Origin: Escherichia coli
GTDB lineage: Bacteria; Pseudomonadota; Gammaproteobacteria; Enterobacterales; Enterobacteriaceae
NCBI RefSeq assembly: GCF_030013595.1
Contig: NZ_CP122768.1
Direction: 5' to 3' (one strand)
Length of the DNA: 64,000 nucleotides
Part shown: positions 6,229 to 45,061 of the stretch, one piece after another
How positions within the stretch are numbered: position 1 is the first letter of the stretch
How the letters are laid out: every line of letters starts with the position of its first letter
Notes under the pieces: generated by a model
What the model was told of the DNA's origin: nothing
Database searches by the model: none
What the model saw: only the letters and a program-made list of their open reading frames with translations
Program-made: the position numbers and the translations under genes

Positions 6229-6241
6229 ATCATTCAATGCA

Positions 6242-20534: not shown

Positions 20535-20756
20535 TCAGTTCAGGGTGACGCTCATCAGCCGGACATACGGACCAAAACTGTCCTTCCGGCGTTCTGCAAA
20601 CACAGCCAGCACACCGGGAATATCCTGTACTTCACGGCCGGTATATGTATCCGTGCTACCGTGCCAGCGGTATTTACCGGTACAGAACGGAAAAAGACGG
20701 GATGCAGGATGCTGACGGTGAATACGCATGGCTTCACCACGGGTGATGATTTTCAT
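20535..20756 (-). CDS. YeeT-like DUF987 protein
   Basis: 73 aa; recalled match to YeeT (MKIITRGEAMRIH...FPFCTGKYRWHGS). Confidence 0.8.
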   Translation of the reverse strand: MKIITRGEAMRIHRQHPASRLFPFCTGKYRWHGSTDTYTGREVQDIPGVLAVFAERRKDSFGPYVRLMSVTLN

Positions 20757-20842
20757 GAGAATAGTCCTCCTGAATGTGAAAGTAAGAAACAGCTGAGAAA
20801 GAGAAACTGAAGTGATATGAAGGTGATTGTGACGGTGACGGG

Positions 20843-21319: not shown

Positions 21320-21334
21320 TGTGCTTCTCTCCAT

Positions 21335-21820: not shown

Positions 21821-21911
21821 GAGATTATTCCTTATAAAAAGTAAATGAATGGAAGAAACCCCGGGGGAAGGGACAAACGTGAGTCAGAACTGCGCTTTCA
21901 GGGAAAAGGCA

Positions 21912-22730: not shown

Positions 22731-22799
22731 TATTTGCTCCTTATGAATGAGTTAGCGGTATAAATGAATAAATATCCTCCGGCATAGCCGGAGGTTTTT

Positions 22800-23520: not shown

Positions 23521-23530
23521 ATGAAGACGT

Positions 23531-23800
23531 TTATTGCCTGAGAATTCCCTCACTGGCGAGATACGGATTTAGCTGTTTTCCGGCATCAGGTTCAAAATTC
23601 CAGTACCGCCAGCGCAACTGACCTTCAGCATTACGGATAACCAGCCGGAAATGCGTTCCCTGGTCATCTTCAATAAGCACATTGCGGTAAGCTGTTGTGA
23701 CGGCAACCGCCTGTTCGCGTGAGAAAGGGCCTTCGGGTAATAAACGTGATGTACAACCCGGCATATCTGTTGCTCCCTGAAAGTAAAAGGCCCCGGTCAT
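23531..23800 (-). CDS. Small hypothetical protein downstream of antigen 43
   Basis: 89 aa ORF, no recognised domain; coding potential judged only by length and context. Confidence 0.4.
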
Positions 23801-23834
23801 GATGACCGGGGCCTGAAGGGGAGTGACCTGATTA

Positions 23835-26681: not shown

Positions 26682-26894
26682 CAGCTTTTCCTTACAGAGG
26701 GTGAATAAAAAAGCCGGTACCCACAAATATGGGTACCGGCAGGTACAAAACAGCATGGTCAGATAAAGTGGTTTTTCCCGGACATAAATGCTTCTCCTCT
26801 CTCATCCGCCAGAGAAGTATCAGTCCGTTGTGTGCAATTCCGTTCTGCATGATGAAGAGATTCAGCTGCCTTTTCGCAGACCATTAACCACTAT

Positions 26895-26938
26895 AAACGA
26901 TCGATGGTAACGATCGATACATGTTTTATCGATCGTTT
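26895..26938 (-). promoter_or_regulatory. agn43 leader with three clustered GATC sites (Dam/OxyR phase-variation switch)
   Basis: GATC at 26899, 26912 and 26931 within about 35 bp, roughly 220-250 bp upstream of the Ag43 start codon. Confidence 0.65.
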
Positions 26939-27052
26939 TATTCTATTAACAGCAAGGCAGTCACGCAAGAGAAAGAGGTGGGTATGAGGTGTTTGTGTCA
27001 TGTTTTCAGTTGGTTAACGCAATGTAATCAGGCATTTCCCCTGGCAGAGTGT

Positions 27053-27922
27053 TCAGAAGAAAATCCAGTTCCATACAGCGCGGGCAACAGAGACCACCGT
27101 GTCACGGACGACACGCAGAACCGTACGAGCCACAGAGGCAATACAGACGCTCTCCGCCGTGTCAAATATCCGGTCCACCGCACCGGTAAACTGTTCACGG
27201 GCCTGCCCCCGGACAGATTCCGTGCACAACTCGTCCTGCAGGCGGGTCATCAGGGGACTGGCGGCATGGTCGGGAAGTGCTGTCATGAGCGCACTGACCA
27301 GCGTATCCAGTTCCCAGCCGGTGCGGGCCGATACGGCCACAACCGGATGTACGGGCCGGAACAGCCGGAATACCGCATCTGTTTTCTCACGAATGTTCTG
27401 TTCCTGTGCGGGAGAAGGCTGAATACCTGCCATATCCCATTCATGGCAGGGCTCCGTTTTGTCGGCCTGCGTCACCACAAACAGCACCTGCTGATGTCCC
27501 CGGTGCAGGATGTGTCGCCAGAAATACTCATCCACAGACAGGGCACGGTCATCGGCTTTAATCAGCCACAGTACCAGGTCAAGTTCAGGCAGAATGTCAC
27601 GGTACAGGGCTTCATACTCTGCATCCCTGTCCCGGCTCTCGCCCACCCCGGGTAGGTCAGTGATAACCATGCTGTGACCATGGCCACTCAGACGGAAGCG
27701 CTGCGCTTCCCGGGTGCCGGCGTGAACATCACTGACCGGGGTGACCTCCCCCTGAAACAGTGCATTACAGAGTGAGGATTTACCGGCCCCGCTTTTCCCC
27801 ATAATGCCAATCACGGGTTCGTGGCTGGTGAGTTTGCGCAGATGTTCCAGGATGTGACGGGAAAGTGAGTAAGGAAGAGAAGAAAGTGGTTTTTCAATTG
27901 CCTCAATGGCATCAGACGGATT
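27053..27922 (-). CDS. YfjP/YkfA/YeeP-family GTPase
   Basis: Walker A GIMGKSGAGKSS, G3 DLPG, G4 TQADK; start set at MNPSDAIEAIEK; ORF track start 27964. Confidence 0.85.
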   Translation of the reverse strand, partial: NPSDAIEAIEKPLSSLPYSLSRHILEHLRKLTSHEPVIGIMGKSGAGKSSLCNALFQGEVTPVSDVHAGTREAQRFRLSGHGHSMVITDLPGVGESRDRDAEYEALYRDILPELDLVLWLIKADDRALSVDEYFWRHILHRGHQQVLFVVTQADKTEPCHEWDMAGIQPSPAQEQNIREKTDAVFRLFRPVHPVVAVSARTGWELDTLVSALMTALPDHAASPLMTRLQDELCTESVRGQAREQFTGAVDRIFDTAESVCIASVARTVLRVVRDTVVSVARAVWNWIFF

Positions 27923-28255
27923 CATACATGTATTCCCGGTGAAAAAAGACAAAACCCCGCGCACCGGAAAGGTGGCGGGGGATTCACGGAGATAATATCT
28001 GTCTGAAATTATTTAGGATGCAGGTATCTTCAGATAATCGCACCCCCAGAATTTTATTCTTAATAGTTGAATAGTGGTATTTGGTTTCCCTGAGAGAATA
28101 TAAAGATGAATCATGCTGTATTGAGTTTGATTCTATTTGTACTGAGACAGGTATCTTCATGATTATAATCAAAAGCCGGGTGGATTGGTCTGGCGCTAAT
28201 TATTTTCTCGAATAAACTCACTAATTATTGTAACCATCCCAAAGGAGATGATTTT

Positions 28256-30400
28256 ATGTATAATTGTGGTGAATCATATTCAGAATACGACATATCATTA
28301 TCTGACGATGAAAACTATAACGATGACTATTATCGTGAGCGCCCGTGCCCGGGAGAAGTTTTCGGCTATGATAATGATGTACCACGGTTTAGTAAGATTG
28401 CACGGTCTTATTTGCTCCACGTGGGTAGCCTTGACTGGACCAAGATAAATCCGGATATCTTTGGCTCCATGATTCAGGCAATTGCCGAAGATGAAGAGCG
28501 CGGAGAGCTGGGTATGCATTACACCAGCGTACCCAACATCTTAAAAGTTTTGAATCCACTATTTCTTGACGACCTGCGTGCACAGCTGGACGAGGCTGGT
28601 GACAATCCACGTATGTTGCTGAACCTGCGCAAACGCATTTCCCACATTCGTGTGTTCGACCCAGCGTGCGGTTCTGGGAACTTTTTGGTTATCGCGTATA
28701 AGGAAATGCGTGCCATTGAGGCCGAAATCAACAAGAGGCGCAGTGAGCCGGATCGTGCCTCGGATATTCCACTTACCAACTTTCGCGGGATTGAACTACG
28801 AGATTTCCCGGCAGAAATCGCCCGCCTTGCGCTTGTTATCGCTGAGTACCAATGTGATGTGCTGTACCGTGGGCTGCGGCTGGCCTTGGCTGAGCTTCTT
28901 CCTTTACGCAACGAAAATTGGATTACTTGTGGCAATGCACTGCGGCTCGACTGGTTAAGAATTTGTCCGCCAACGGGAACCAGTGTGAAATTACATGGTG
29001 ACGACTTGTTTGGATCACCGCTTGATCAGGCAGAGATTGACTTTGAAAATGAAGGAGGAGAGACATATATTTGTGGAAATCCTCCATACAAGGGTAGCCA
29101 AACCCAAACTGATGACCAAAAAAATGATCTAAAAGCCATATTCGAGAAACGCACAACTAATTGGAAGTCATTGGATTATGTTGCAGGTTGGTTTATGAAG
29201 GCTGTCGACTACGGTAGTCAAACTAACTCGTCTGCTGCGTTCGTCTCAACTAATTCCATTTGTCAAGGTAGACAGGTCGAAACCCTTTGGTCGTTGATTT
29301 TTGCAGCCAAGCATGAAATATCCTTTGCTTATACGTCCTTCAAATGGGCAAATCTTGCTAGCCACAATGCGGGAGTGAGTGTCATTGTTGTGGGAATTTC
29401 TAATCATGTTAAGGGCCCCCGGAAAATATTTTCCACAACTGAGGATTTGGGGACCATCATAAAAGAAGTAGACAACATCAATGCGTATCTTGTCGCGGGT
29501 AAAAGCACAATTGTTGCACAGCGAAGTTTTCCTTTATCCGAAGTAAGTGTAATGGATTTTGGTTCAATGGCGAACGATGGTGGTGGCCTTCTTTTTGACA
29601 GTTCAGAATCAAGTCGTGCAGTTAATGATTATGGTGCTGATATTTGTTATTTTCGAAAGGCTTGGGGAGCTAAGGAGTTTATTTCTGGAACTCCTAGAGC
29701 TTGCCTGTGGTTAAATAAAGACAGTGCTAAAAAAGCAATTCTGAACTCTTGGATTTCAGACCGAATTGAGATCACACGTAAGGCCAGAGCAAATAGTCCT
29801 CGGGCAGCGACAAAAAAACTAGCAGATATTGCTTACAGATTTGGTGAAGTGAGGCAAGACGGCAGCGAGCGAATCATTATTGTTCCCAGTGTCAGTTCTG
29901 AACGTAGGGAGTATCTTCCATGTGGTTATCTCGATGTTGGTTCAATCGTTATCGCTCCGAATCTTGCTTTCTATGATTCCCCGCTTTGGAATATGGCGCT
30001 TATTGCTTCTAGGTTGCATTTGGTATGGGTGGCGACAGTCTGCGGGCGTATCAAAACTGACTATCGCTACTCTAATACCCTTGGCTGGAATACTTTCCCT
30101 GTCCCACCACTCACTGAGAAAAACAAGGCCGACCTTACGCGTTGCGCAGAGGATATCCTACTGGCGCGGGAACACCACTTCCCTGCGACTATTGCGGATT
30201 TGTATGATCCCGCGAACATGCCCCCTGACCTGCGTGCTGCCCATGAACGAAACGACGAAGTGCTGGAACGCATCTATATAGGGCGACGATTCAAGAACGA
30301 CACTGAGCGGCTGGAAAAGTTGTTCGACCTCTACACGAAAATGATTGCTTCGACTGCACCGGTCAAAGGTAAGAAGCGCAAAGCAGGAAATAACGAATGA
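28256..30400 (+). CDS. N6-adenine DNA methyltransferase, gamma-class, MmeI/PglX-like, without nuclease domain
   Basis: 714 aa; strong SD aaaggaga 8 nt before ATG; SAM motif I VFDPACGSGNFLV at about aa 135 and catalytic motif IV CGNPPYKG at about aa 277; upstream HYTS helical region; about 430 aa C-terminal presumed target-recognition region. Confidence 0.8.
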   Translation: MYNCGESYSEYDISLSDDENYNDDYYRERPCPGEVFGYDNDVPRFSKIARSYLLHVGSLDWTKINPDIFGSMIQAIAEDEERGELGMHYTSVPNILKVLNPLFLDDLRAQLDEAGDNPRMLLNLRKRISHIRVFDPACGSGNFLVIAYKEMRAIEAEINKRRSEPDRASDIPLTNFRGIELRDFPAEIARLALVIAEYQCDVLYRGLRLALAELLPLRNENWITCGNALRLDWLRICPPTGTSVKLHGDDLFGSPLDQAEIDFENEGGETYICGNPPYKGSQTQTDDQKNDLKAIFEKRTTNWKSLDYVAGWFMKAVDYGSQTNSSAAFVSTNSICQGRQVETLWSLIFAAKHEISFAYTSFKWANLASHNAGVSVIVVGISNHVKGPRKIFSTTEDLGTIIKEVDNINAYLVAGKSTIVAQRSFPLSEVSVMDFGSMANDGGGLLFDSSESSRAVNDYGADICYFRKAWGAKEFISGTPRACLWLNKDSAKKAILNSWISDRIEITRKARANSPRAATKKLADIAYRFGEVRQDGSERIIIVPSVSSERREYLPCGYLDVGSIVIAPNLAFYDSPLWNMALIASRLHLVWVATVCGRIKTDYRYSNTLGWNTFPVPPLTEKNKADLTRCAEDILLAREHHFPATIADLYDPANMPPDLRAAHERNDEVLERIYIGRRFKNDTERLEKLFDLYTKMIASTAPVKGKKRKAGNNE

Positions 30401-32442
30401 ACAATAAAATCAAGAATGTACCTTCCGTTTCCGTTACTTATGCACGTAATGGCGCATCAACCAAAGCTAATGTGCTTGGGATGCGTCCTATGCAGGAGAG
30501 AGCTTATGAAAAGCGCGGCGAGCAGTACTTGCTTATCAAATCACCACCGGCATCAGGTAAAAGCCGCGCACTGATGTTCATAGCACTCGACAAACTCGAA
30601 AACCAAGGGATTAAACAGGCAATCATCGTTGTGCCGGAAAAATCTATCGGCGCGAGTTTCAACGATGAACCGCTATCGCAGTTTGGATTCTGGGCTGATT
30701 GGCATGTCGAACCTAAGTGGAACCTATGCAACGCGCCCGGTAACGACAACGGGGGCAAGGTAAGATCTTTTGGCTCTTTTCTTGAAAGTAGCGACAAGGT
30801 GCTTGTTTGCACACACGCAACCTTTCGCTTCGCGGTCGATGCCTATGGCGTAGAAGCGTTTGACGATCGCCTGATCGCCGTCGATGAATTCCACCATGTG
30901 TCAGCTAACCCGGATAACAAGCTTGGTCAGCATCTGGGGCAGTTCATCGCGCGTGATAAGACACACATCGTTGCCATGACCGGCTCCTACTTCCGTGGTG
31001 ATGCGGAGGCCGTTTTGGCTCCTCAGGATGAGTCCAGGTTCGATACCGTCACCTATACCTACTACGAACAACTCAACGGTTACGAATACCTCAAGCAACT
31101 CGATATCGGCTACTTCTTTTACAGTGGCTCCTACGTCGATGACATCCTTAATGTCCTCGATCCTGACAAAAAGACCATTATCCATATACCCAACGTCAAT
31201 TCGCGCGAGAGCACGAAGGATAAAATCAAGGAAGTGGAGCATATTCTTAGCGAGCTTGGCGATTGGCAAGGTGCGGATCCTGCGACTGGTTTCCAGCTAG
31301 TCAAATGCCTCGATGGCCGAATGTTGCGTATAGCTGATCTGGTGGACCCAACTAGTCAAGGCAAGATTCAGGAAAGCCTTCGTGCTGCAGAAATGAAGAC
31401 AGACCGTGACTATGTAGACATCATTATTGCACTTGGTATGGCGAAGGAAGGTTTTGACTGGATTTGGTGCGAACATGCGCTGACCGTTGGCTACCGTGCC
31501 AGCCTGACTGAGATCGTGCAGATTATCGGTCGCGCTACTCGCGACGCGCCGGGTAAAAACCGCGCAAGGTTTACTAACCTGATCGCCGAGCCGGATGCTG
31601 TTGAGGGGGCTGTCACCGAGGCAGTCAACGATACCTTGAAAGCCATCGCGGCAAGCCTGCTGATGGAGCAAGTATTAGCTCCGCGCTTCGAGTTCAAGCC
31701 TAAGAACCCAGAAAGTGGTCCGGCCCCAGGCTTTGATTATGGTGATGGTGGATATGACCCGGATAGCTGTAATTTTGGTGTTAATGAGCAGACAGGGACG
31801 TATCAAATCGAGATTAAGGGACTTGCCGAGCCCAGGAGCAAAGAGGCGGCACGCATCTGCCAGGAAGATTTAAACGAAGTGATCGCGGCCTTTGTGCAGG
31901 ATAAGCCCGCCATCGAACGAGGCCTGTTCGATGAAGAGCTGATTCCTGAAGAGTTAACTCAGGTTCGTATGGGTAAGATCATCAAAGAAAAGTATCCTGA
32001 GCTTGATGCTGAAGATCAGGAGGCTGTACGTCAGCATGCTATCGCCGCCCTTAACCTCACGCAGCAGGCCAAGCGTCTTGCCACCGACGATAACGATGGG
32101 ACGCTCAATACTGCTCTTATTGACGGAGTGCGTCGCTTTGCGATGGATGTGCGCGATTTAGACATAGACCTTATCGACCGCATCAATCCCTTTGGTGAAG
32201 CCTACGCTATCCTTGCTAAGACGATGAGTGAAGACAGTTTGAAGCAGGTCGCGGCGGCAATCTCGGCCAAGCGTACCTCGATCACACCTGAAGATGCCAA
32301 GGTGATCGCCAAGCGTGCCGCTGAATTCAAACGTGAACGTGGCCGCCTCCCATCGTTAACTTCGCCGGATGCTTGGGAAAAACACCTTGCTGAAGGTGCA
32401 GCTGCGTTTATGCGTTTTAGGGCGGAGGGACGTTATGAATAA
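30397..32442 (+). CDS. SF2 (DEAD/DEAH, ResIII-like) helicase with about 300 aa uncharacterised C-terminal extension
   Basis: 681 aa; ATGA overlap with MTase stop; Walker A SPPASGKSRA, DExH box IAVDEFHHV, motif III MTGSYF, motif VI QIIGRATRD. Confidence 0.8.
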   Translation: MNNKIKNVPSVSVTYARNGASTKANVLGMRPMQERAYEKRGEQYLLIKSPPASGKSRALMFIALDKLENQGIKQAIIVVPEKSIGASFNDEPLSQFGFWADWHVEPKWNLCNAPGNDNGGKVRSFGSFLESSDKVLVCTHATFRFAVDAYGVEAFDDRLIAVDEFHHVSANPDNKLGQHLGQFIARDKTHIVAMTGSYFRGDAEAVLAPQDESRFDTVTYTYYEQLNGYEYLKQLDIGYFFYSGSYVDDILNVLDPDKKTIIHIPNVNSRESTKDKIKEVEHILSELGDWQGADPATGFQLVKCLDGRMLRIADLVDPTSQGKIQESLRAAEMKTDRDYVDIIIALGMAKEGFDWIWCEHALTVGYRASLTEIVQIIGRATRDAPGKNRARFTNLIAEPDAVEGAVTEAVNDTLKAIAASLLMEQVLAPRFEFKPKNPESGPAPGFDYGDGGYDPDSCNFGVNEQTGTYQIEIKGLAEPRSKEAARICQEDLNEVIAAFVQDKPAIERGLFDEELIPEELTQVRMGKIIKEKYPELDAEDQEAVRQHAIAALNLTQQAKRLATDDNDGTLNTALIDGVRRFAMDVRDLDIDLIDRINPFGEAYAILAKTMSEDSLKQVAAAISAKRTSITPEDAKVIAKRAAEFKRERGRLPSLTSPDAWEKHLAEGAAAFMRFRAEGRYE

Positions 32443-33613
32443 TTCTGATTTAGACGATTTGGCAGCAGAACTTGCCGAGTTTGCACCACCTGAGAAGAAA
32501 AAAGGACGTCCAGCCAGCGAGGAACGCATCATAGCCGGTTTTGAAGAGATCCAGCGCTTTACTGAGCAACATGGGCGTGTCCCGCAACATGGCGAAGAGC
32601 GTGATATCTTCGAGCGTCTCTATGCAGTGCGGCTCGACCGCCTACGCAGTCTCCCAGACTGCCGTGCCTTGCTAGAGCCACTGGATCATCAGGGCTTATT
32701 AGCTGGAGGGGGCGATGTAGCGGAGTCTGCGGACGAAATTATCGATATCGATAACTTGGCTGCCGAACTGGCGGATGTTTCCAGCGAGGACGATATCACG
32801 GTCTTGCGTCATGTTCGTGCTAGCACCGAAAAGCGCGTTGTACAAGGAGTTGCGGATCGCAAGCCGTGCGAGGATTTTGATGCGTTCAAACCACTATTTG
32901 AGCAGGTACGCAATGATCTAAGTTCAGGGTTAAGAGTGACCCGACCTTTTGGGCAGTATGCAACGATTGAAGTGGGTCATTGGTTTATCCTGGATGGTCA
33001 AACGGCTTATGTGTCTGAGGAAGGTGAAGAGTTCGATTCTCCACAGGGGAAGAAAGATGCTCGGCTGCGTGTCATTTATTCGAATGGTACAGAAAGCAAC
33101 CTACTTCGGCTGTCATTGGTTCGTGCTTTGTATAAAGACGAAACAGCGCGTCGAATTACCGATCCAGACATGGGGCCTTTATTCAGCGATGCTCTAGAAG
33201 AGAGCGATCTAGAAAGTGGCACTATTTATGTGTTGCGTTCGCTATCTGATAACCCTTATGTAGCTGAACATCGTGATGTCATTCACAAGATTGGAGTGAC
33301 TGGCGGCAAAGTAGAGGCGCGTATTGCCAATGCGGAACACGATTCCACCTATCTGTTAGCGAAAGTCGAGGTGGTAGCTTCATACAAGCTTGCAGGCATC
33401 AACAGCACCCGGATGGAAAACCTGTTTCACAGGTTGTTTGCACCCGCAAGGCTTAACATTACCATTAACGACCGTTTCGGCCATCCAGTGCAGCCCGAGG
33501 AATGGTTTCTCGTTCCGTTATTCGTTATCGATGAGGCTGTTGCACGTATTAAGGATGGTAGCATCATTGGGTATGTTTATGACCCCATGTCTGCGAAACT
33601 GGTGAAGGCATAG
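32435..33613 (+). CDS. Protein with C-terminal T5orf172 / GIY-YIG-superfamily domain
   Basis: 392 aa; start ATG 32435 overlaps the helicase stop by 8 nt and has GGAGGG SD; C-terminus GTIYVLRS...HKIGVTGGKVEARI...ENLFHRLF...EEWFLVP matches the T5orf172/GIY-YIG pattern; N-terminus has two acidic repeats DLDDLAAELAEF and DIDNLAAELADV. Confidence 0.7.
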   Translation: MNNSDLDDLAAELAEFAPPEKKKGRPASEERIIAGFEEIQRFTEQHGRVPQHGEERDIFERLYAVRLDRLRSLPDCRALLEPLDHQGLLAGGGDVAESADEIIDIDNLAAELADVSSEDDITVLRHVRASTEKRVVQGVADRKPCEDFDAFKPLFEQVRNDLSSGLRVTRPFGQYATIEVGHWFILDGQTAYVSEEGEEFDSPQGKKDARLRVIYSNGTESNLLRLSLVRALYKDETARRITDPDMGPLFSDALEESDLESGTIYVLRSLSDNPYVAEHRDVIHKIGVTGGKVEARIANAEHDSTYLLAKVEVVASYKLAGINSTRMENLFHRLFAPARLNITINDRFGHPVQPEEWFLVPLFVIDEAVARIKDGSIIGYVYDPMSAKLVKA

Positions 33614-33650
33614 TGAAGTGACACACTGAATTTGGCCACCTGTTCTGAGG
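33614..33650 (+). repeat. IS3-family (IS911-like) terminal inverted-repeat-like sequence abutting the stop codon of the T5orf172 gene
   Basis: TGAAGTGACACACTGAATTTGGCCACC starts one base after the TAG stop; shares TGAAGTG...GGCCACC termini with the IR at 33838-33864. Confidence 0.5.
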
Positions 33651-33837
33651 TGAGTATATCACCTCAGAACAGCACAGGAATAAAAGATACTGATTTGAAT
33701 GTGCCTATACTTTGTGATGTGAGGATCAATGAATAGTAACCTGATCAAGATATGTTACCGTGGTGAGACTGGTGAAAGTGGTGAAAGTGATCTAAGAACA
33801 TTGATACTTGGTGAGATTCTATATATCTCACTATGAA

Positions 33838-34262
<425 letters not shown>

Positions 34263-34426
34263 TAAGCGTCGTCTGAGTACCGTCTGGTCCCGAATCCAGG
34301 ATCCTGTAACTTAAGCACCCACTTATTTTGCAGGTGGACACCTCATGCGCACCAAAGAACGACTCCCCCGGAAACGCTATTCTCCTGAATTTAAAATGGA
34401 ACTGGTCAGGCTGGCCCTTGAACAAG

Positions 34427-36191
34427 ATATCACGAACGGTGCAATAGTGGTTCTTCCGCAACTTGGGTGGAAGAAAATGGATGAAACTTTCTGGTGAACA
34501 AGGATCTAAGCTGTTTTAAGTTATGGGCAACGCAATGCACTCTCTTAAGACACTTCTACAGTTACCTTGCGGATGGCGATGCAGTCGACAAATTATTAGC
34601 TCTGACGGTATCACCCTCCATCTCCACGGAAAACGCAAAACAGCACAATGTCCTGAATGCTCTAAGCGTAGCGACTCTGTTCATAGTTCTCGTCGGCGCC
34701 GGATACAGCATCTACCCTGCTCCGGGCAGACGCTATGGCTTGTATTTTCCGTCCGCCACTGGTACTGCCGTAACCCGGCTTGTTCACGTAAAATTTTTGC
34801 CGAGTCGCTTGCTCCCTTCGCCGGTTCACACCAGCAGTCTTCACAGGCGTTACAAAATTTACAACGTCAACTGGGATTAATAGCTGGAGGTGAGGCTGGA
34901 AAACGGGCTGCAACGGCAGCGGGTCTCCGTTGCAGTGCTGATACTCTTCTTCGCAGGGTTATCAATACCCCGGAGACGAAACAGTCAGGCGCGCCTCATG
35001 TCGGTATTGATGAGTGGGCGTGGCATCGGGGCCACTGCTGCGGTATGTTAATAGTCAATCTTGATACTCACCGTCCCCTCGTCCTGCTTCCCGGCCGTGA
35101 TCAGCGTACGCTGGCGACCTGGTTCAGAAAATATCCGGAAATACAGGTTGTCTCGCGTGATCGCAGTGGAGTCTATGCGACAGCAGCACGTGAAGGTGCA
35201 CCTCAGGCCAGACAGGTGGCCGATCGATGGCACCTGCTAAAAAATATTGGTGATGAGCCTGAACGAATGATGTACAGACATATACCTCTGATACGTCTTG
35301 TTGCCAGTGAGTTGTCACCAAAGAAATCACCTGAGCCAGAACTGTCTGTGCCTGCAGCATCGCTCCGTCGTCCGGAACGCCTTAAACAGCAAACCCGCAA
35401 AAAACGGCATCAGCGTTGGACAGAGGTTATGGCCCTGCATAACAAGGGATGTAGTTTCAGGGAAATATCCCGTATTACAGGCCTGTCGCGTGTGACAGTC
35501 AGTCGCTGAGTACGTTCAGGAACATTCCCTGAAATGTCAACCCGACCTCCAAAGCGAGGGCTTTTGGACCCATGGAGGGAGTGGTTAAAAGAGCAACGAG
35601 AAAGTGGGAATTATAACGCCAGCCGGATAATGGCGGGAAATGGTGGTCCGGGGGTTTACAGGCAGTGAAACCATTGTCAGGGATACTGTTGCCAAATGGC
35701 GTAAAGGCTGGATCCCACCGGTTACTACTGCCGTCAGACTTCCTTCAGTGTCCCGGGTAAGGCGCTGGTTGATGCCCTGGAGAATAATCAGGGATGAAGA
35801 AAATTATGCTTCCCGATTTATTAGTCTGATGTGTGAAAAAGAACCGGAGCTGAAAATAGCGCAGCAACTGGTACTCGAGTTCTACCGTATTCTGAAAACC
35901 CAAAATAAATCACAGCTTAGCAGCTGGTTCACTCGAGTCCACGAAAGCGGTTCAGCAGAACTTCGGCGCGTGGCTGCGGGGATGGAAGCTGATGCTGCGG
36001 CTATATGTGAGGCAATCAGCAGTCGCTGGAGTAATGGTGTTGTCGAAGGTCATGTAAATCGCCTGAAGATGTTGAAACGCCAGATGTATGGTCGAGCCGG
36101 ATTTGAACTGCTCAGGCAGAGGGTCATGAGTCCACTGGCATGAAAATCTCCACCCAAGTTGCGGAAGAACCACTTTTCATCCGTCGTTGAC
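34427..36191 (+). mobile_element. ISL3-family insertion sequence nested in IS66 tnpA
   Basis: Perfect 23 bp terminal inverted repeats ggttcttccgcaacttgggtgga (34449-34471) and tccacccaagttgcggaagaacc (36149-36171), extending imperfectly outward; removing 34427-36196 restores the IS66 tnpA frame. Confidence 0.75.
34523..36143 (+). pseudogene. ISL3-family transposase, disrupted by an in-frame stop and a frameshift
   Basis: Two ORFs (34523-35509 and 35640-36143); N-terminal zinc-finger-like HLHGKRKTAQCPECS and C-terminal WSNGVVEGHVNRLKMLKRQMYGRAGFELLRQRV typical of ISL3 transposases; TGA at 35507-35509 followed by a frame change. Confidence 0.75.
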
Positions 36192-36498
36192 ACAAGAGGG
36201 CAGTATCGCTGCTCTGGCCCGTCAACATGACGTCAACGATAATCTGCTCTTTAAATGGATAAGGCTCTAGCAACGTGAAGGGCGGGCGGGTCTGTCGACC
36301 CCGAAAAAATGCATCGTCGCTTCCTGCCCTGATACCCGTGCAACTTCAGGCGGAGCCTTCTCTCCCGGCATTCGAACCACCATCCTGTTCACCTACCACT
36401 GCCTGCCACATAAAATGTCGGGGCGGAGAAATAACACTGACCTCTCCCTCAGTTGAGCTTATGAGCACTGTCCTGCGCGAACTGATGCGGGGGTCTGT

Positions 36499-36840
36499 AT
36501 GATAAATCTTCCCGCAGGCACAAAAATCTGGCTGGTTGCCGGTATCACCGATATGCGCAACGGCTTCAATGGTCTCGCCGCAAAGGTGCAGACAGCGTTG
36601 AAAGATGACCCGATGTCCGGCCACGTCTTCATCTTCCGGGGCCGCAGCGGCAGTCAGGTCAAACTGCTGTGGTCCACCGGCGACGGACTGTGCCTGCTGA
36701 CCAAAAGGCTGGAGCGTGGCCGCTTCGCCTGGCCGTCGACCCGCGATGGCAAAGTGTTCCTGACGCCGGCGCAGCTGGCGATGCTGATGGAAGGTATCGA
36801 CTGGCGACAGCCAAAGCGGTTACTGACGTCCCTGACATGT
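36499..36840 (+). CDS. tnpB: IS66-family TnpB (orf2)
   Basis: MINLPAGTKIWLVAGITDMRNGFNGLAAKVQTALKDDPMSGHVFIFRGRSGSQVKLLW...GIDWRQPKR matches IS66 orf2; ATGA overlap with preceding tnpA frame; 3' end merges into the truncation junction. Confidence 0.7.
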
Positions 36841-37684
36841 TGTAGCCCAGGTCTTCTTCGTTGATAAAGTTCACATCCAGAGGATGGATACTTCCTGTAG
36901 CCCGTAATATCGTCGGTTCAATATCCTGCACATTCATCGGGATCACCGATGCAAGAAAAGCCCATTGATCAGAATAAGGCTGGAAATTAATATCAACAAA
37001 AACGCTTCCCCCCGATGCACGCGGTCTTTTTTGCAGAGGTAACGCGATAAGATTACCAAATCCTCCTTTTGGCATAGTATCCTGATTAGGAAATAATCGG
37101 TCATAAGAACTCAATTGCAGCTGTCGGGTCCGGCTGCACGTATAGCTAATAATAGCAGTCCCCAGACGGCGAGCTTCGCGGGCCGAAACTCGTGAAGCAA
37201 AAAATATCCAGACATGCGCTCCCTGACGTGAGCGGGATATTTCCAGCGCAGCAGGTACACTCAGCTCATCACAGGCTCGCATGAACGCGGATGCATCCTT
37301 CTGCCATTCAGCTTTATCAAAATCAACAGCCAGAAAATAACAGGAATCATCTTCCAGCAACGGATATAACCCGGCAGTATGCGTGCCTGCCAGATGCTGG
37401 TAGATGACAAGATCAGATACAGGGAGTAACTGACGGTGCGTACAGTCCCCGCATTTTATCCGGGGTTTACCGCATATTCTCGCCTGCCATTCGTTAGCGC
37501 AGGCAGGAGAGTACCCTGATTTGCCGCTGGTTTTACTTTCCCAACGAAGGGCCCATATATCATCACGCCCACGAAACAACCGACGAAATAATGCAACCTT
37601 CTCGTCGGTGGATAATACGGAAACGCGCTGCACAGGGCTCGGCGGTTTACGTCGCCATTCCAAGTAATGAGACCAGACGGGCAT
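36841..37684 (-). pseudogene. Archaeo-eukaryotic primase (AEP / Prim-Pol)-like gene, 3'-truncated by the IS66 remnant
   Basis: N-terminal LFRRLFRGRDDIWALRWE, DxD motif FLAVDFDK, GAHVWIFF and GGFGNLIALP motifs; the last third of the listed 341 aa ORF is antisense IS66 tnpB sequence. Confidence 0.6.
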
Positions 37685-37887
37685 TTTCTGCCCTCAATGC
37701 AGCTAATTCATCGCTGTCAGATTTATGAACCATATTCGTTACCTGTATCCGATCCACTGAGGCACCACGGCAGAAATTCGGGTCCCCTACACTGATGACA
37801 AAGCGCCCCGCCCTCTTCTGCCTATTAACTCAAGCACCTCCCAACAACTTACAGAAACTTAATTCTAATACCTAATACAGCTGTAAT

Positions 37888-38451
37888 TCAGTTGTGTCGT
37901 GGTCGGCCCCGGTTACTTTTTTCGGGAAGCCTGCTACGGCCCAGAATAATACCGTGTTCTTTCTGATCCTGTTTAGCCAGGTAGCTGAGGGCGTAACGTA
38001 AGTCGTCTACCGCGGACTTATCACTATAGTGAATCACGTGATCGATACGCACCGGGTATTTATCTTTAGCCCGGCACAGATGAAAATAACCATCCCCTTC
38101 CGTGATCCGCCTCCAGATATCTCCCAGTTGCCTGGATATCTGATAAGAGTTCTTGTGACGTTGTCCATCCAGGTAGCCGATAAAATGAATATGAAGCCCT
38201 TTGTCTGGTGTATATTCCATAACCCAGTAATATCCTGCCAACATCGTTTGGTTTTCGCTAAGTAAACGGTATATTTCCATACACATACTGTGCTTACAGG
38301 AATGCCCGAAACTGGGCGTGTATTTCCTGTAGGCAAAATCAATTCTGAAAGGTAACAGTTTAGAAAAACGTTGAAACAGACCTTCCATGTGTTCATTCAC
38401 ATCTTTCAGAATCGCGAAATTCATTTCGTAATTGGGATTGGCATTATACAT
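37888..38451 (-). CDS. YagK/YfjJ-family (inovirus Gp2-like) protein
   Basis: 187 aa; recalled family resemblance and conserved position next to DUF3987/alpA in CP4-like islands. Confidence 0.65.
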   Translation of the reverse strand: MYNANPNYEMNFAILKDVNEHMEGLFQRFSKLLPFRIDFAYRKYTPSFGHSCKHSMCMEIYRLLSENQTMLAGYYWVMEYTPDKGLHIHFIGYLDGQRHKNSYQISRQLGDIWRRITEGDGYFHLCRAKDKYPVRIDHVIHYSDKSAVDDLRYALSYLAKQDQKEHGIILGRSRLPEKSNRGRPRHN

Positions 38452-38581
38452 TTTATAGTCCTTACTTTATAAAATTCACAGGAAGAGGGAATTACGTAAA
38501 TACTGAGAGTACATAAACGCCGTACCACGGCATTAATAAACGAGGTAACCAGCAGTACAGACAACCTGATAAAACTGTTTG

Positions 38582-38609
38582 GTATTACCTCATTACAATG
38601 AGGTAATAC
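38582..38609. promoter_or_regulatory. Perfect 13 bp palindrome (gtattacctcatt ac aatgaggtaatac) upstream of the YagK-like gene
   Basis: Exact inverted repeat with 2 bp spacer, about 130 bp upstream of the start codon inside a roughly 970 bp AT-rich non-coding region. Confidence 0.35.
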
Positions 38610-39423
38610 TTCAGAATACAGTGAGGCTCTCTTAAACAGAGGACTAGTAAGAATTACAATGGCAAAAACACACCTCATAGAATTAAGTTTAAGGAAGTAC
38701 CATTCAATCACTTACAGGAAGTAATCTGATCTTCACAAAAGTCAGCTATCGAATAGCCACAGGCAACATCGCTATTAATATTGCCGTACCATTAAGTAAA
38801 AACAGGGACTCTGCAGAGAGAGCCTACAGATATTTAACCTCACAATAAGAAGATTATTTTATACAGAAAATATTATATTTACCCATACTTATAAACTGTA
38901 ATGGAGCTATAACATACGAACTAAAGACAATATACTCTAATAGTGTTCTGGTACGTAACTAGTGTTAAATACAAACCAGACATACATTCAGTGGATTAAC
39001 TATCTCAATATTACGCTATGAGCGTAGTAACATAATTTACACATAACTAAACCCCATACACCTCCACACTGTAGTATATGGGATAGACGCATTACGCACA
39101 TACAGAATACTCAGCATAACATAAAGAGGAGTGACATTACGATAAAAAGAGACAACATAACAGATAACATAACTCCCATTAATAATACTAATTAACCTAA
39201 ATTATTTATTGAATACGAAAACAATGAAGGCCCCACCTCACCTCAGACTAAAGCCGACAATATCCTGAGCAACAGGATATCCAATAGTAAATAGTGGTTA
39301 CACCAGTTATATTTACTGACTGACCTGTACCAGAGTTTTCTAATACAACGCTGACATGGTAAAGGCATTAGTCTCCTCCGCAAGTAGCAGAGGAGACTAT
39401 ATGTTAGTCAACGATTAAGTTGT

Positions 39424-40874
39424 TCAGAGGTCAAAGTTAGGTGCGACACACAACGTTTTTCCCTCAATAACCGGTACAACTCTGTTTTGTTCATACAGTA
39501 AATCCAGTAACCAGTTGATTTTATCCTTTTTCCGGAAACGGTTCGGACCACGCTGTAAAATGTCATTTTTTTTCATACAGAGGATCCCCTTCTCAATGCA
39601 ATAGCTTTTTATCCAGTTGAAAAGTTCAAGCTCCTCTGGAATGAGTCGCACAGGTACGGTCAGGGCAGGGTTGTCAAAAGTTAACGGATTAGACAACCGC
39701 ACATACTCATTACCGTACCATATTGCTAATTCTCTCGCCATTTCTGCAATGTAAGGGGAAATCTCCCCCTCCTCACCGCTCGAATGGTAAATAAGTCCTG
39801 CCAGTCTTGCCATATACTCTGCATTTTTAGCAGCATATTCCCGGCAATGTCTTAAAGGCCCCAATCCCCCCAGCTTCGATTCCACATCATTGTAATAATC
39901 CGTCCAGATTCTGGCAGCCTGAGGAGAAAAGTGAAGGCAACGTCGTTCACCACTCATCGCCAGACTTTCATCAATAAGCTCATTGATCCTCTGTTCAAAC
40001 AAATCCTGATACTGTGATGAATAATTATCTCCGGTTATTATCCTTGTCCCCTGCGTTGATGTTGGTTGACACATCAAAAACCTTGCATGATGTCCTGACG
40101 TTTTCACAAGTTCTTTTTTTCGCGTACAAAAACCTTTGTGGTAAACATCAGGCTGAATCATCGCCGACATCGTCAGTCTTGGCTCCTTCAAATTAATTCC
40201 GGGAGATGATTTCCTGTCGATGAAAAGAGAACCTCCATCCCACAAAGTGTTAATAATTCCCAGTTTACTCATGGCCCGGCTGTCAAAAATTCCCCCCCTT
40301 CACTGGATACAAGAGCAAAAGAACGATTGCTATCGGAGTAATATTTTAACATTCCCTCTATCGTTGTCTCATTAAAAATTGTTCGACGTATCTGCGGCGG
40401 AACAGGAGACTTATTCAGATGCGTTTCAAGCTCTGATTCTGTTGCCTTGTAATCTTTACCGGCACGAATCTCTTTATGAAATTTTGATTCCAGCGCTTTT
40501 TGTTTTTGCTCCCATATTTCCTTTTCTGTGCTGTAATTCTCAACCAGTTTCGCGTATTCTTCCGCCAGGGCTTCATCCCTGAGATAAAATGCTTTCATAA
40601 ACACTTTATCCACGGTCGTTTTCCTTTCACCAGAATCAGCCAGAATCAGAGAGTAAAGATTAACAGGCCCACGTAAATTTCCAGGTCTGCACACGTCAAT
40701 CTGATTCTGACAGGCAATTGAGATCGCTGTTAATGCGGATGTCGCCACCATAGCCAAAGGTGCCTGTGTATTTTTTTGAGTTTCAATTATTGCATTTCTC
40801 ACCAGCGGTGGTAGTGCATATATCGGATAAGGATTTTCTGGTGCAAGTAAGCACATAAAAGCCTCTCTTTTCAT
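39424..40874 (-). pseudogene. YfjI-like DUF3987 protein gene split by a frameshift in a C7/G7 homopolymer
   Basis: Two ORFs (40874-40269, 201 aa; 40272-39424, 282 aa) in adjacent frames; both frames are open across the C7 run at 40292-40298 and one extra C would fuse them into about 483 aa. Confidence 0.6.
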
Positions 40875-41104
40875 TAATGGGTTAGTAAAGTAGCAGCAAC
40901 TCCCGCTATAATAGCGAAATAGCTGCTGTTCAGACCTAATGTTCTGAGAAATACAGAATATCTGTAGATCTGATGTTTAATAAACCGATAAGGTTAATTC
41001 AGTTCATACTGTGTTATTTACCACGAAATATCATTCATGTTTCTCATTCTTAACACCTCCTAAAATTATTTCACTAACACCTTCCCCCCGGTCTTTTTCC
41101 TTTC

Positions 41105-41332
41105 TCAGGAATCAGCCAGAACCATAGTGTAAATATTAACGGGCCCACGTAAATTTCCGGGGTTGCACACGTCAATCTGATTCTGACAGGCAATTGATAT
41201 CGCTGTTAATAATGATGTTGTAGTCATAGCCAGAGATGCTTTTTCATTGTGTTGAGTTTCAATTATTGCATTTCCAGTCATTGATGGTTGCGCATATACT
41301 GGATACGGAGTATCCGGTTTGATGTAAGACAT
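41105..41332 (-). pseudogene. Duplicated 5' fragment of the DUF3987 gene
   Basis: 75 aa ORF with an LAM..TS.LTAISIACQNQIDVC.PGNLRGPVN.Y core shared with the N-terminus of the ORF at 40874; flanking DNA 41100-41410 repeats 40620-40930 at roughly 80 percent identity. Confidence 0.55.
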
Positions 41333-41437
41333 AAATATTTCCTTTTTTCGTAATAACTTTCGGTTATAGCAGCTATTTCCGCTACAATAGCAACAATAGC
41401 TGCTATACAGACTGGATATACTGAAAATACAGACAGT

Positions 41438-41686
41438 TCATCTGGTCTGTATCCAGCAGAGAAGGTCACTTAACAACCATCCGCAAGATTTCTTTCCGAT
41501 AGACTTACGTGGTGGAAATGTTCCCTCCCGTTCAAGTTTCCACGCTTGTGTACGAGAAATTGACGTGATCTCATATCGTTCCTTTTCACGTACCAGTCTG
41601 TCGCATTCAATCCCATAAGCTTTCAAAATGACCAGACGCTGTTCATCTGTTAATGGAAGCCACATACTACCCTCCTGATATATCAA
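41438..41686 (-). CDS. alpA: AlpA-family phage/island transcriptional regulator (HTH)
   Basis: C-terminal YEITSISRTQAWKLEREGTFPPRKSIGKKSCGWLLSDLLCWI matches the AlpA HTH pattern; true start may be an internal Met. Confidence 0.7.
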   Translation of the reverse strand: MIYQEGSMWLPLTDEQRLVILKAYGIECDRLVREKERYEITSISRTQAWKLEREGTFPPRKSIGKKSCGWLLSDLLCWIQTR

Positions 41687-42355
41687 TACTTTTTATTTCC
41701 GGCATGAGCATGAAATGACTAAGTTTCCCGGATAAACAATGAGTGAAAGTCACTATCATTCATCCAGTCAACACCTTACAAATAAAATGTAATACTATGA
41801 TTTTTATAGGTCAAAATACTGAATTGAAATGTTAAAATGGCTTTTAATAGAAAAAATAAAGACATATAGAACCAAATAAAAACAAGCCGCGACCAATAAA
41901 AACAAAAATTAATATTAAAAATCCATTATGACGATTTTTGTTGACTAAAATTAGGTTGGGATATATAAATAAATCCATGTAAAATTCAAACAAAGCATGG
42001 AGGAGTCGCAGGAAGGTGAAATATTTCCATCTAATTTGTGATAATCATCACAAAAATAAGCTACAACAAGCGGAGGAAAAGACAATCTGTTGCTGAACAG
42101 ACAGAAGCAGGCTACGAATGATCGGAAAATGAAGCAAATACGCTTATACAGAAGACGCAGAGGTAACTGACGGAGACAATCACAATCAGGAGAAAATTAT
42201 CGTAAATAATGTATAAAATCTCAGGATATAAACAAATGTACACAAGCTATCCACGTAATCAGCGGCTGGCTCAGGATTAACGTTTCATTTCAGTGGACAA
42301 CATCGATTCTGTCTGACAGCGGACCAATATGTAGCAAGCAGAAACTTCTGACATC

Positions 42356-43954
42356 ATGGTAACTCGGACAATGCAACAAAAGTATCAGTATGATCGTGTT
42401 TTATCCGGCGAACTCCACCCATTCCCTGGCATATACGAGGCGGTTTCCGAACAAATCCTTTTGCTCATTTTTAAAGCACGTCAACTATATCAGGATCCAG
42501 AATATCGCCCCTGGTTTGAAGAACAGCACAGAGTACTCTCTGCATTACGTGCCAATACAGAGCTCCTGAGAATCTTTAGAGAACAAAGAAGCGCTGAAGA
42601 ACCAAAGCTTACTATTGAAGAGTCTACCTCCCCCCAACCCACTCCTTCTGCTCTTACAGATGCGCTTAATGTGATGTGCCATTTATACAATGGTTTTGAT
42701 GAAGGAAATATCAGTCTGAAAACTTGGGGGGCGATGCAAGAGGTACAGACAACATCAACCTTTATCAGCCCAGGACCGAGAACCTGGAAAACACCTGAAC
42801 TGGCAAAGTTTGTAGGAGATGATTTATTTAATATTCTGACTGAATGTAAGGCCTGGAGTTCACCAATTCCAGCAGAAACCCGACAGGGGTATTGCCATCA
42901 GGATCTGTCTGTTGCACACTCCTGCACCTCAGAGTTACTGGCACACCTGAATCAATATCATGAAATTGATGAATCAGCAATACTTGCCAGAGTTATTGGT
43001 ATAACAGTTAACGGATTCTACAAGAAAAATAATACAGACCTTCCAGAATGGCTATCCCCCTTTAAAGAGGAACATAAAATATTCAGAGATTGTCCGGAGC
43101 AAAATACCGGGGATGTAATCAGACGGAAAGAACAACTGTTGAAAACAGGACGTACAGAATTCGTGAATAATTTGTGTCGGGTCGCCAACTGGTATGAAAT
43201 TGAGTCAATATACGATGAATACGTCCGTCTTTATGCCAATGAAATCATTGACTGGTTCAACAAAACCATGAAGTATTTTAAACCAACAGATTTTATCCGA
43301 TATACATGGAAATTCGCAACAGTTACTCCGGATAAAGATACAGAAACCGGGCATACAACTGCATGGGAAAAGGATTATTGCCAGATAACCATACAACGTG
43401 ATGAACTTCTGAGGTTGATTCACACCAATACCCTTCAGGATGCAGTAATTTATCTTTGTCATTGTCTACAGAAGGAATACAAGAAATCATCCCAAAATGA
43501 GATAGAGTTCCCAGGAATAAAACCTCCGACATCAGAGAGTAAAATTAATATAACAAATAATATTAAATTTCATTCTCTCCTGGAGCTCAGTAAAGATAAT
43601 GAGAAGCGTCTGGAAACATTTCAAAAATGGTATGAAAAAAATAAAGTTTTGTTAGAAAGTCATAAACAAAAACGAACAGAGAAGATTGACGTTGCCGTAC
43701 GACTTGTAGGGCTGAAAGCCTATGATCTGCATGAAGGGATTCCGGATAGTCCAAAACGAAAAGTTAAAGATGGCATAAATGAAGACATCAAAGCCGATAC
43801 CAGTTTACGCCTGTCAAAGACAAATATAAGTGATACGTCGCTAAACCGTTATCGCCGCACTGTTAAGGAGATTATCAATAACGAAATTGACGCATTCCTG
43901 TTGGAACAGAAGAAAAAAATAAAAGATTTCCCTACAGTGAAGATAGAGATGTGA
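42356..43954 (+). CDS. Hypothetical protein, 532 aa, no recognisable domain
   Basis: Long uninterrupted ORF in an AT-rich segment; no Walker, nuclease or HTH motif found by eye; start codon uncertain, no clear SD. Confidence 0.55.
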   Translation: MVTRTMQQKYQYDRVLSGELHPFPGIYEAVSEQILLLIFKARQLYQDPEYRPWFEEQHRVLSALRANTELLRIFREQRSAEEPKLTIEESTSPQPTPSALTDALNVMCHLYNGFDEGNISLKTWGAMQEVQTTSTFISPGPRTWKTPELAKFVGDDLFNILTECKAWSSPIPAETRQGYCHQDLSVAHSCTSELLAHLNQYHEIDESAILARVIGITVNGFYKKNNTDLPEWLSPFKEEHKIFRDCPEQNTGDVIRRKEQLLKTGRTEFVNNLCRVANWYEIESIYDEYVRLYANEIIDWFNKTMKYFKPTDFIRYTWKFATVTPDKDTETGHTTAWEKDYCQITIQRDELLRLIHTNTLQDAVIYLCHCLQKEYKKSSQNEIEFPGIKPPTSESKINITNNIKFHSLLELSKDNEKRLETFQKWYEKNKVLLESHKQKRTEKIDVAVRLVGLKAYDLHEGIPDSPKRKVKDGINEDIKADTSLRLSKTNISDTSLNRYRRTVKEIINNEIDAFLLEQKKKIKDFPTVKIEM

Positions 43955-44078
43955 TTCGACCTTTATGGGGAAAATGCCTGACCGGGCAGTAGATCACAGA
44001 TGGGATAACATCCCGGTTATCCCCTGTTTGTTCTGCTTCAGGTTGCCAGAGCTCCAGGAACACGAGGCAATCGGCAAA

Positions 44079-44675
44079 TTATGCGGCTTTTCCATTAACA
44101 GATTCGGCCACAAGAACAACACCGTGTTTGTTTCGATCAGGATGTTCACTCCAGATTTCTGATTCAGGAATACTTTCCCCATCATAGCAGATCCGATCAC
44201 CATCAAACGGATAATACCGTGCGGAATCTGTATCTAAGATAAACACCTTAAGATTCGTTGAACGACGCGCTATATGCTGCCAGAGGGCTTTACCTCCTTC
44301 ATATTGCTCGTTATCACTTAATAGTATAACGCCTGCTTTTGTGGCTATTGTTTCATAAACAAACGTAGCAAGGCTAACATCACGTACAGCACCATCGACA
44401 ACAATCCCTTCAATCTGAGCAACGTCCTGTTCTTCCCAGAATTTCCGGACAAACACCCCTTCAAGCTGTGAACGACGCTGAAGCTCCAGAGTGGCAACAA
44501 CCTTATGGCGAATATCACCATCAATAACAGAAGGTGCAGCTTCGATTACCGCAGCGAACGGAGTCTTTGGATCCCAGATGATCTGGTAAAGCACACCCTG
44601 AATAGTTACTCCATCCAGTATCGAAAAACGACGAGCTACAGTAGCAGGGGAGTAAGACATTGGAATGACAGCCAT
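44079..44675 (-). CDS. Hypothetical protein, 198 aa
   Basis: ORF adjacent to thrW inside the island; no recognised motif. Confidence 0.5.
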   Translation of the reverse strand: MAVIPMSYSPATVARRFSILDGVTIQGVLYQIIWDPKTPFAAVIEAAPSVIDGDIRHKVVATLELQRRSQLEGVFVRKFWEEQDVAQIEGIVVDGAVRDVSLATFVYETIATKAGVILLSDNEQYEGGKALWQHIARRSTNLKVFILDTDSARYYPFDGDRICYDGESIPESEIWSEHPDRNKHGVVLVAESVNGKAA

Positions 44676-44975
44676 TTTATGGCCTAAAATTTGAAAACAT
44701 CAGTATCAATACTGACCTCATCAGTCTGAGCATATATTGATAAAGTTTTTATGTTTACACTCAATAAATACCTTACCAAACAACTAATAGCGATGTCTAC
44801 ATTGCCATTCGACATGCTTACAATTTTTGTCAACAAGAAAGTGAATTTATATCAACGGTAAGAAGTAAACACGAGGACACCAAAACCAAATGTACACACT
44901 TTTGTGCTTTGTGTCCCCTGTGTGTACCCAAATGACAAACTGCAAGAAAATCTAGGCACACACTTATCTAACTTA

Positions 44976-45031
44976 TTGATTTAAATGGTGCCGATAATAG
45001 GAGTCGAACCTACGACCTTCGCATTACGAAT
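44976..45031 (-). repeat. Island-junction direct repeat overlapping the 3' part of thrW
   Basis: 56 bp match to 16635-16690 with 2 mismatches. Confidence 0.85.
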
Positions 45032-45061
45032 GCGCTGCTCTACCAACTGAGCTATATCGGC
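44986..45061 (-). tRNA. thrW: tRNA-Thr (anticodon CGT)
   Basis: Reverse complement reads GCCGATATAGCTCAGTTGGTAGAGCAGCGCATTCGTAATGCGAAGGTCGTAGGTTCGACTCCTATTATCGGCACCA; 76 nt with CCA end, located next to proA. Confidence 0.95.

Follow-up and report, generated by a model that had tools for sequence, protein, structure and literature searches.

An unassigned open reading frame (ORF) of 198 codons lies directly inside the junction between a genomic island and the tRNA gene thrW in Escherichia coli. We asked what kind of protein it encodes, whether that protein is likely to act on behalf of the island, and how the gene came to lie at this edge. The window (the whole stretch of DNA that was analyzed) is 64,000 nucleotides long.

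The 198-aa protein and its predicted fold

The layout of the junction was as an earlier note on this DNA had described it. The ORF finder and ARAGORN placed the ORF at 44079-44675 and 310 bp from thrW (about 310 bp in the note), and the ORF is convergent with one of 532 codons, with 124 bp between the two stop codons. The features are:

42356..43954, plus strand: 532-aa ORF, facing the 198-aa ORF
44002..44023, plus strand: terminator-like hairpin between the two convergent genes (consensus scan)
44079..44675, minus strand: 198-aa ORF, with an ATG start
44676..44985: 310-bp spacer between the 198-aa ORF and thrW
44986..45061, minus strand: tRNA-Thr(CGT), thrW, the only tRNA gene in the window (ARAGORN; Rfam tRNA, 71.8 bits)

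The locus is E. coli thrW, since proA, proB, and phoE lie on its right. In a near-identical E. coli chromosome (NZ_AP029605.1), the ORF is labeled 'hypothetical protein' and adjoins tRNA-Thr and proA. The GC content was ~0.45 in the ORF, 0.36 in the spacer, and 0.52-0.59 in proBA.

The 198-aa ORF is a real gene under purifying selection and not a chance reading frame, because it has full-length homologues, low pairwise dN/dS, and wide occurrence. Estimates of dN/dS (Nei-Gojobori) were 0.03-0.11 when the window copy was compared with copies from Escherichia albertii, from an E. coli island on the nfeF side, and from the phage-plasmid SJ46; for the SJ46 copy, dS was ~2 and dN 0.06. The exact protein sequence was present on at least 1000 public contigs, and DNA homologues were found in 805 of 5426 complete E. 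coli genomes (~15%), falling into three classes of identity. The class with at least 95% identity had 353 records. The class with 90-95% identity had 340, and the one copy examined (L026) was in an island adjoining nfeF/yqjH. The class with 60-80% identity had 127, of which those listed had the size of a P1-like plasmid, about 95-100 kb. L027, another copy linked to nfeF, was 96.3% identical to the window gene, and the identity bands therefore do not match location cleanly. The thrW-type junction, counted by means of its spacer, was carried by 278 of the 5426 genomes.

The protein belongs to a phage protein family that curated domain models do not reach. Scans of the 198-aa protein with Pfam, NCBIfam, and PADLOC gave no significant match, a sequence search of the PDB with the single protein gave chance-level matches only, and the defense-protein models of PADLOC-DB 2.0 assigned no family to either the 198-aa or the 532-aa protein. 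RraA-like matches in the scans of these two proteins (E about 0.1) were discarded as noise. Among PHROGs, phrog_7522 matched residues 1-198 (E 1e-126) and phrog_7349 matched residues 3-66. When 1.84 billion cluster representatives were searched exhaustively with HMMER, 253 clusters were recovered at E<=1e-3, mostly of 200-215 aa. As judged by sequence comparison, the 198-aa protein is a full-length member of the PmgF-long (PHROG 7522) family that lacks a conserved N-terminal segment of 10-12 aa. In an alignment of 114 sequences, W132 was invariant, and Q87, Y107, S120, D121, L131, Y164, and W175 were conserved in at least 90%; Q124 is likewise among the invariant or near-invariant polar residues of the family. 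The window protein keeps all of the invariant columns (W132, Y107, S120-D121, Y164, and W175). Taken together, the invariant and near-invariant polar residues Q87, Y107, S120, D121, Q124, W132, Y164, and W175 point to a putative active site.

The predicted structure resembled acetyltransferases. An AlphaFold2 model made from the 114-sequence alignment (pLDDT 91.3, pTM 0.87) has a mixed alpha/beta GNAT fold, in which a beta4/beta5 splay is flanked by alpha3 and alpha4. The best Foldseek matches in the PDB were acetyltransferases (Naa60, NatA/E, HAT1, and others), with a top probability of ~0.99, weak E-values, and TM scores of 0.3-0.4, and the structural neighbors within the GNATs were HAT1, NatD/Naa40, Naa50/Naa60, insect AANAT, and Listeria 2oh1. 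Among predicted viral structures the best match had a TM score of 0.76 (E 7.5e-13), and several matches were 'NAT_SF domain containing' proteins of uncultured Caudovirales. Membership of the GNAT superfamily by fold is solid. The protein differs from canonical GNATs in that the N-terminal half of the model is rich in beta strands and has no alpha1-alpha2 arm. It also differs from curated GNATs in that no GNAT model of Pfam or NCBIfam reaches its threshold, and from other GNATs in that the family has an invariant set of its own (Q87, Y107, S120-D121, W132, Y164, and W175). Conservation is high in the beta6-beta7 loop (residues 149-185), which is long.

We also examined the position of GNAT motif A. 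This motif, Q/R-x-x-G-x-G/A, lies in the beta4-alpha3 loop and binds pyrophosphate. Its position in the window was set by alignment columns, hhalign, and a match to AANAT2:

44370..44387, minus strand: GNAT motif A position, codons 97-102 (V-R-D-V-S-L, with A103 next), in the beta4-alpha3 loop

The family profile matched AANAT2 in the PDB weakly, across the segment of beta4-alpha3 and motif A, and hhalign paired the beta4-alpha3 region with motif A of RimI. In the 114-sequence alignment, the motif columns held R/Q in 57% and K in 18% (75% in all), G in 80%, and A/G in 87%. Pfam Acetyltransf_1 touched six of the 114 members, weakly (best E 6e-4), and the window protein itself had no match. As read from the alignment columns, motif A is present at the level of the family; the window copy reads R98-D-V-S101-L-A103, and its Ser, where Gly is usual, is found in nine of the 114 members. 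The earlier note had found no motif that could be assigned; from the column counts, the pairing with RimI, and the alignment, GNAT motif A of the family can now be named instead. The clear match to a characterized family outside island biology that the note gave as a refutation was only half borne out: the superfamily is clear, whereas the subfamily is not a characterized one. In public databases the protein is already present as 'hypothetical' or, occasionally, 'N-acetyltransferase', and literature searches (pmgF, protein accessions, thrW and defense hotspots, GNAT anti-defense) found no paper on the family. The 198-aa protein is an uncharacterized newcomer to a known superfamily.

We lean toward the view that the gene encodes an acyl-CoA-dependent GNAT acyltransferase of phage origin that is carried as accessory cargo, here as a copy displaced at its 5' end. 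Acetyl- or acyl-CoA would be held in the beta4/beta5 splay by the motif A loop (R98-D-V-S101-L-A103) and helix alpha4 (G127-G-K-A-L-W132), and the acyl group would then be passed to the amine of an acceptor. The acceptor might be gripped by the beta6-beta7 loop (Y164-D-G-x-[N/S]-I...I-W175-S) together with S120-D121 at the end of beta5, and the likeliest candidates are a lysine or the N-terminus of a protein, or else a small amine. The target in phages is probably a component of the host or of a competitor, modified during infection or lysogeny; in the island the enzyme would be carried-over cargo. Catalysis, the cofactor, the acceptor, and expression of the thrW copy are all points that we infer.

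Relatives in phages, islands, and chromosomes

Relatives of the 198-aa gene in P1-like phage-plasmids occupy the place of a P1 gene with an old name. SJ46 and RCS47 have homologues that are 88% identical in amino acid sequence, with bplB immediately before them and the lytic-replication module after them, exactly where pmgF lies in P1. The similarity in DNA between the window and SJ46 (79%) was limited to the ORF. P1 PmgF (98 aa; 5995..6291 of L003) was 45% identical over residues 4-66 only. Because PmgF diverges after residue 66, stops at residue 98, and has no GNAT core, it looks like a truncated relic of the ~210-aa gene of SJ46 and RCS47 and not its prototype. The name 'putative morphogenetic function' and PHROG 7349 belong to a protein that, unlike the 198-aa protein, is without the whole GNAT core. 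Eight regions vary strongly among P1-like phage-plasmids, and the segment rlfA-rlfB-pmgF is one of them (PMC9603915).

One phage lineage has the gene inside the operon for the Dar antirestriction and head proteins. On L066 (IMG/VR UViG_3300013827_000023, 1764..8865) and on L067, a D6/P1-like contig, a homologue with 68% identity lies between ddrA and a ddrB-like gene and is co-oriented with them. We assign it to the Dar operon because DarA is encoded upstream, ddrA and ddrB flank it, and the portal gene is downstream, in the order darA-ddrA-GNAT-ddrB-portal; DdrA of L066 was 42% identical to that of SJ46.

More distant members were found in other phages. On large phage contigs, members with 27-29% identity lie beside the gene for an NAD-dependent DNA ligase, with overlapping stop and start codons, and also adjoin genes for tRNA-amidotransferase-like and phosphoesterase/RNA-ligase-like proteins. 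In the early regions of lytic phages, members of the family are solitary genes. The homologue in RsoM2USA, a Ralstonia jumbo phage, was 30% identical over 70% of the protein (tblastn). Phage proteins of the PHROG 7522 type, of ~200 aa (BFVD A0A8D4KE75, an uncultured Caudovirales 'NAT_SF domain containing protein', and gp116 of RsoM2USA), widen the distribution and add no mechanism. On an 89-kb viral contig (L070, 2783..4632), genes for a protein with a colicin M domain and a family-17 glycosyltransferase precede a 54%-identical homologue.

In islands next to nfeF, the gene follows an integrase gene. The order in E. albertii and at both E. coli loci examined (L026 and L027) is nfeF, a co-oriented integrase gene (438 aa) and the GNAT gene, a convergent gene of 545 or 568 aa, and then alpA, yfjI, and a yagK-like gene. 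Likewise, a metagenomic relative with 30% identity (L006) comes directly after a P4-type integrase gene. It is followed by a gene with an Ntox44 toxin domain and a small ORF (204..3080 of L006), another neighborhood of conflict genes.

In other genera, the gene had about 50% identity and was solitary in unrelated core contexts, the neighbors being named from a reading of their proteins. Related loci were found with an alignment of 16 sequences. The gene follows rsmI in Buttiauxella and Cedecea, a pair of ECF sigma and anti-sigma genes in Pantoea, and kbl-tdh in Enterovibrio; in Erwinia and Winslowiella it adjoins glyQS, and in Ewingella it is the last gene of the mdc cluster. No tRNA gene lay within 8 kb of 18 homologues in other species, and no partner gene was conserved in the contexts examined across these genera. 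Based on the varied contexts and the lack of a conserved partner, the gene behaves as a self-contained mobile single-gene module (a 'moron'), probably of phage origin. The earlier note had suggested island-specific cargo. Cargo is a fair word, but the gene is not specific to islands, being found also in phage-plasmids, the nfeF island, the dar operon, lytic phages, and chromosomes.

A protein with the fold of a GNAT need not be an enzyme, and the old P1 name implies a role in the virion or in morphogenesis. We consider it unlikely that the family is non-catalytic, its fold serving for binding or regulation (for example as an acyl-CoA sensor or an adaptor between proteins) or as an accessory to the virion or its morphogenesis. 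The invariant polar residues S120-D121, Q87, Y107, and Y164 suit catalysis better than mere binding, and many copies are at chromosomal sites outside phages. A structural role in the virion is unlikely in particular because P1 retains only the 66-aa homologous remnant and because pmgF was non-essential, dispensable for plaque formation, in a CRISPRi screen of P1 (PMC10695390).

Some GNATs are toxins of toxin-antitoxin pairs, and the 198-aa protein might in principle acetylate aminoacyl-tRNA as the toxin of a GNAT/RHH pair like AtaT, KacT, or TacT. This is highly improbable: no small antitoxin gene was adjacent in any context examined, the neighbors differ in every context, there was no PADLOC match, and dozens of other GNATs resembled the protein at least as well as AtaT. 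Phage and mobile-element GNATs with known roles include, besides such toxins, Mom of phage Mu, which modifies DNA, and the anti-CRISPR acetyltransferase AcrVA5. Neither AtaT/KacT nor Mom had specific sequence similarity to the protein, and the gene lacks both the antitoxin partner of the former and the com/mom-type regulatory context of the latter.

The junction at thrW

The island has two ends that match the 3' end of thrW, and its only intact integrase gene is at the end away from thrW. A repeat search found two matches to the 3' end of thrW (none expected), which bound an island of about 28.3 kb (16669..44985). The features are:

16645..16668, minus strand: distal copy of the 3' end of thrW, 23 of 24 nt
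16820..18175, plus strand: tyrosine integrase gene, the only intact one of the island, at the thrW-distal end (Pfam Arm-DNA-bind_3 and Phage_integrase)
41438..41686, minus strand: AlpA-family regulator, 82 aa (Pfam Phage_AlpA, E 2e-13)
44986-45009, minus strand: 3' 24 nt of thrW, the proximal att repeat

The distal integrase gene adjoins a DUF4942 gene. The thrW-proximal end, where the integrase gene lies in related islands, has none. We considered the distal integrase as a displaced partner of the 198-aa gene and rejected it, as it was 23% identical to the nfeF-type integrase (BLASTP).

The earlier note had also raised a recombination directionality factor, and in one respect the arrangement invites it: a P4-type integrase gene is directly followed by the gene, in the same orientation, in the nfeF-side islands of E. 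coli and E. albertii and in the case of the 30%-identical relative from a metagenome. Nonetheless, a role in directionality or as an integrase accessory is scarcely credible. The protein has a GNAT fold and not that of the small winged-helix Xis/AlpA type, and at 198 aa it contrasts with the 82-aa AlpA-type regulator, which is encoded separately in the same island and is, from its sequence, the actual candidate for a factor of the Xis type. Homologues are found in P1-like phage-plasmids, which do not integrate, in lytic phages, and at chromosomal sites free of integrases. The integrase gene that would be adjacent has been lost at thrW, but 278 genomes there still have the ORF whole.

Homology to the relatives of the 198-aa gene stops just before its start codon. 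Similarity to the E. albertii island and to SJ46 ends at 44678/44679, 3-4 nt before the ATG. Upstream of this breakpoint the relatives share a leader that encodes (M/V)PVL..GDS.M, whereas the window has the 310-bp spacer, which is AT-rich and found only in the 278 E. coli genomes (of 5426) that have this type of island. We rejected the spacer as a remnant of an integrase gene or as a known RNA, given that it had no similarity outside the 278 genomes and no Rfam match except the tRNA. For most members, and for the nearest copies located away from thrW, the reading frame continues upstream by another 10-12 codons. This segment contains an almost invariant Pro, which 103 of the 105 sequences with a residue in that column have and the window copy lacks. 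In a model of the 208-aa form (AlphaFold2), the extension makes a short strand, with a mean pLDDT of 90 for residues 1-10.

Comparison with these relatives indicates that the thrW copy is a displaced version of an ancestral order of integrase, leader, and gene. The cut 3-4 nt before the ATG removed the integrase gene, the native ribosome-binding region, and the conserved N-terminal strand. Among four thrW-linked copies (L075-L077 and the window), the spacer differed at 0-3 of 310 positions, and the gene differed at 6-16% of synonymous sites (pN/pS 0.03-0.16). Because diversity steps up sharply at the start codon, this pattern suggests that the interiors of the islands have been exchanged repeatedly by recombination against a near-invariant edge made of the tRNA gene and spacer.

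The loss of the leader raises the question of whether the thrW copy still makes a functional protein. It could be a silent, decaying remnant, with the promoter and Shine-Dalgarno sequence lost along with the integrase gene and the N-terminal strand in one recombination; this would be compatible with an enzyme elsewhere in the family. Homology breaks next to the ATG, an in-frame TGA (44702..44700) blocks the N-terminal extension, and the near-invariant Pro is missing. A consensus scan found no minus-strand sigma-70 promoter in the spacer, which is low in GC and contains hairpins, and only an AGG is found 8 nt before the ATG. Against silence, the ORF was intact in all four of the thrW-linked copies with the low pN/pS given above, although that variation may have been imported by recombination. 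Transcription that reads through thrW would have the right direction. In addition, a Pantoea homologue has a TAA at the place of the window's TGA and also starts at the internal ATG, which therefore can serve as a start. Based on these results, a silent remnant at this particular locus seems to us somewhat unlikely.

Two stable hairpins follow thrW on the minus strand (~44920-44963 and ~44873-44918; fold z = -3.7). One has a stem of 14 bp; the other is longer and imperfect (~27 pairs) and leads into a U-rich stretch. They had no match in Rfam and may be terminators of thrW or a structure of the att arm.

Significance and other genes of the island

Some of the phage copies are in settings that could suit a role in conflict with the host. 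The family might be an unrecognized group of phage acyltransferases for counter-defense or host takeover, with the island copies, the one at thrW among them, captured and influencing conflict between phage and host or between elements. Acylation would then inactivate a component of host immunity or of translation or RNA. The copy in the Dar operon and those in early or nucleic-acid-metabolism regions of lytic phages leave room for it; we rate it a speculative and rather improbable extension of the acyltransferase that we propose.

The analysis adds a fold assignment, the link to pmgF, a pattern of mobility, and the anatomy of the thrW junction to a gene that is annotated 'hypothetical'. About 15% of complete E. 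coli genomes have it, as do many P1-like phage-plasmids, and the latter carry resistance genes between hosts as vehicles. The GNAT fold, P1 pmgF as a truncated relic, and the Dar-operon copy in one lineage make it approachable by experiment. At thrW, the junction is clarified as one in which the proximal integrase gene and the native leader have been lost at a breakpoint just before the ATG, with the only intact integrase gene at the distal att. If the enzyme is a routine small-molecule acetyltransferase, the gain is an improvement in annotation only.

The convergent 532-aa ORF is best regarded as separate cargo. Its product had no family match in Pfam, NCBIfam, PADLOC, or PHROGs. Homologues of ~540 aa, also free of domain matches, were found at typical sites for accessory genes: the gpV-gpS interval of P2-like prophages of Klebsiella and the int-alpA interval of a Vibrio island. 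Beside the ~540-aa gene (6001-7623 of both L028 and L031) there was each time a small divergent gene, of 136-145 aa and different in each case. Among the called neighbors of these Klebsiella and Vibrio homologues, judged by gene size only, there was no relative of the 198-aa family. We rejected the 532-aa ORF as a functional partner of the 198-aa gene, as each gene occurs without an evident copy of the other (the 198-aa gene alone in phage-plasmids and other genera). From this distribution, the 532-aa ORF is independent cargo that joins the 198-aa gene only in CP4-like islands. The 532-aa family may be an unrecognized conflict or defense gene.

Elsewhere in the island, two loci differed from the closest genome. 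The YfjI/DUF3987 gene (39424..40874, minus strand) is split into overlapping ORFs of 201 and 282 aa in the window and is a single gene of 477 aa in the closest genome; the window copy appears to be frameshifted. Upstream of it, a 75-aa ORF (41105..41332, minus strand) corresponds to a partial DUF3987 pseudogene in the annotation of that genome. At a junction near ~28372, the window is without ~2.3 kb of the closest genome, made up of IS66 fragments and the 5' part of the gene for a SAM-dependent DNA methyltransferase of class I. The cluster encoding a methyltransferase, a DEAD/DEAH helicase, and a GIY-YIG nuclease (28256..33613) therefore opens with a truncated methyltransferase, 714 versus 928 aa.
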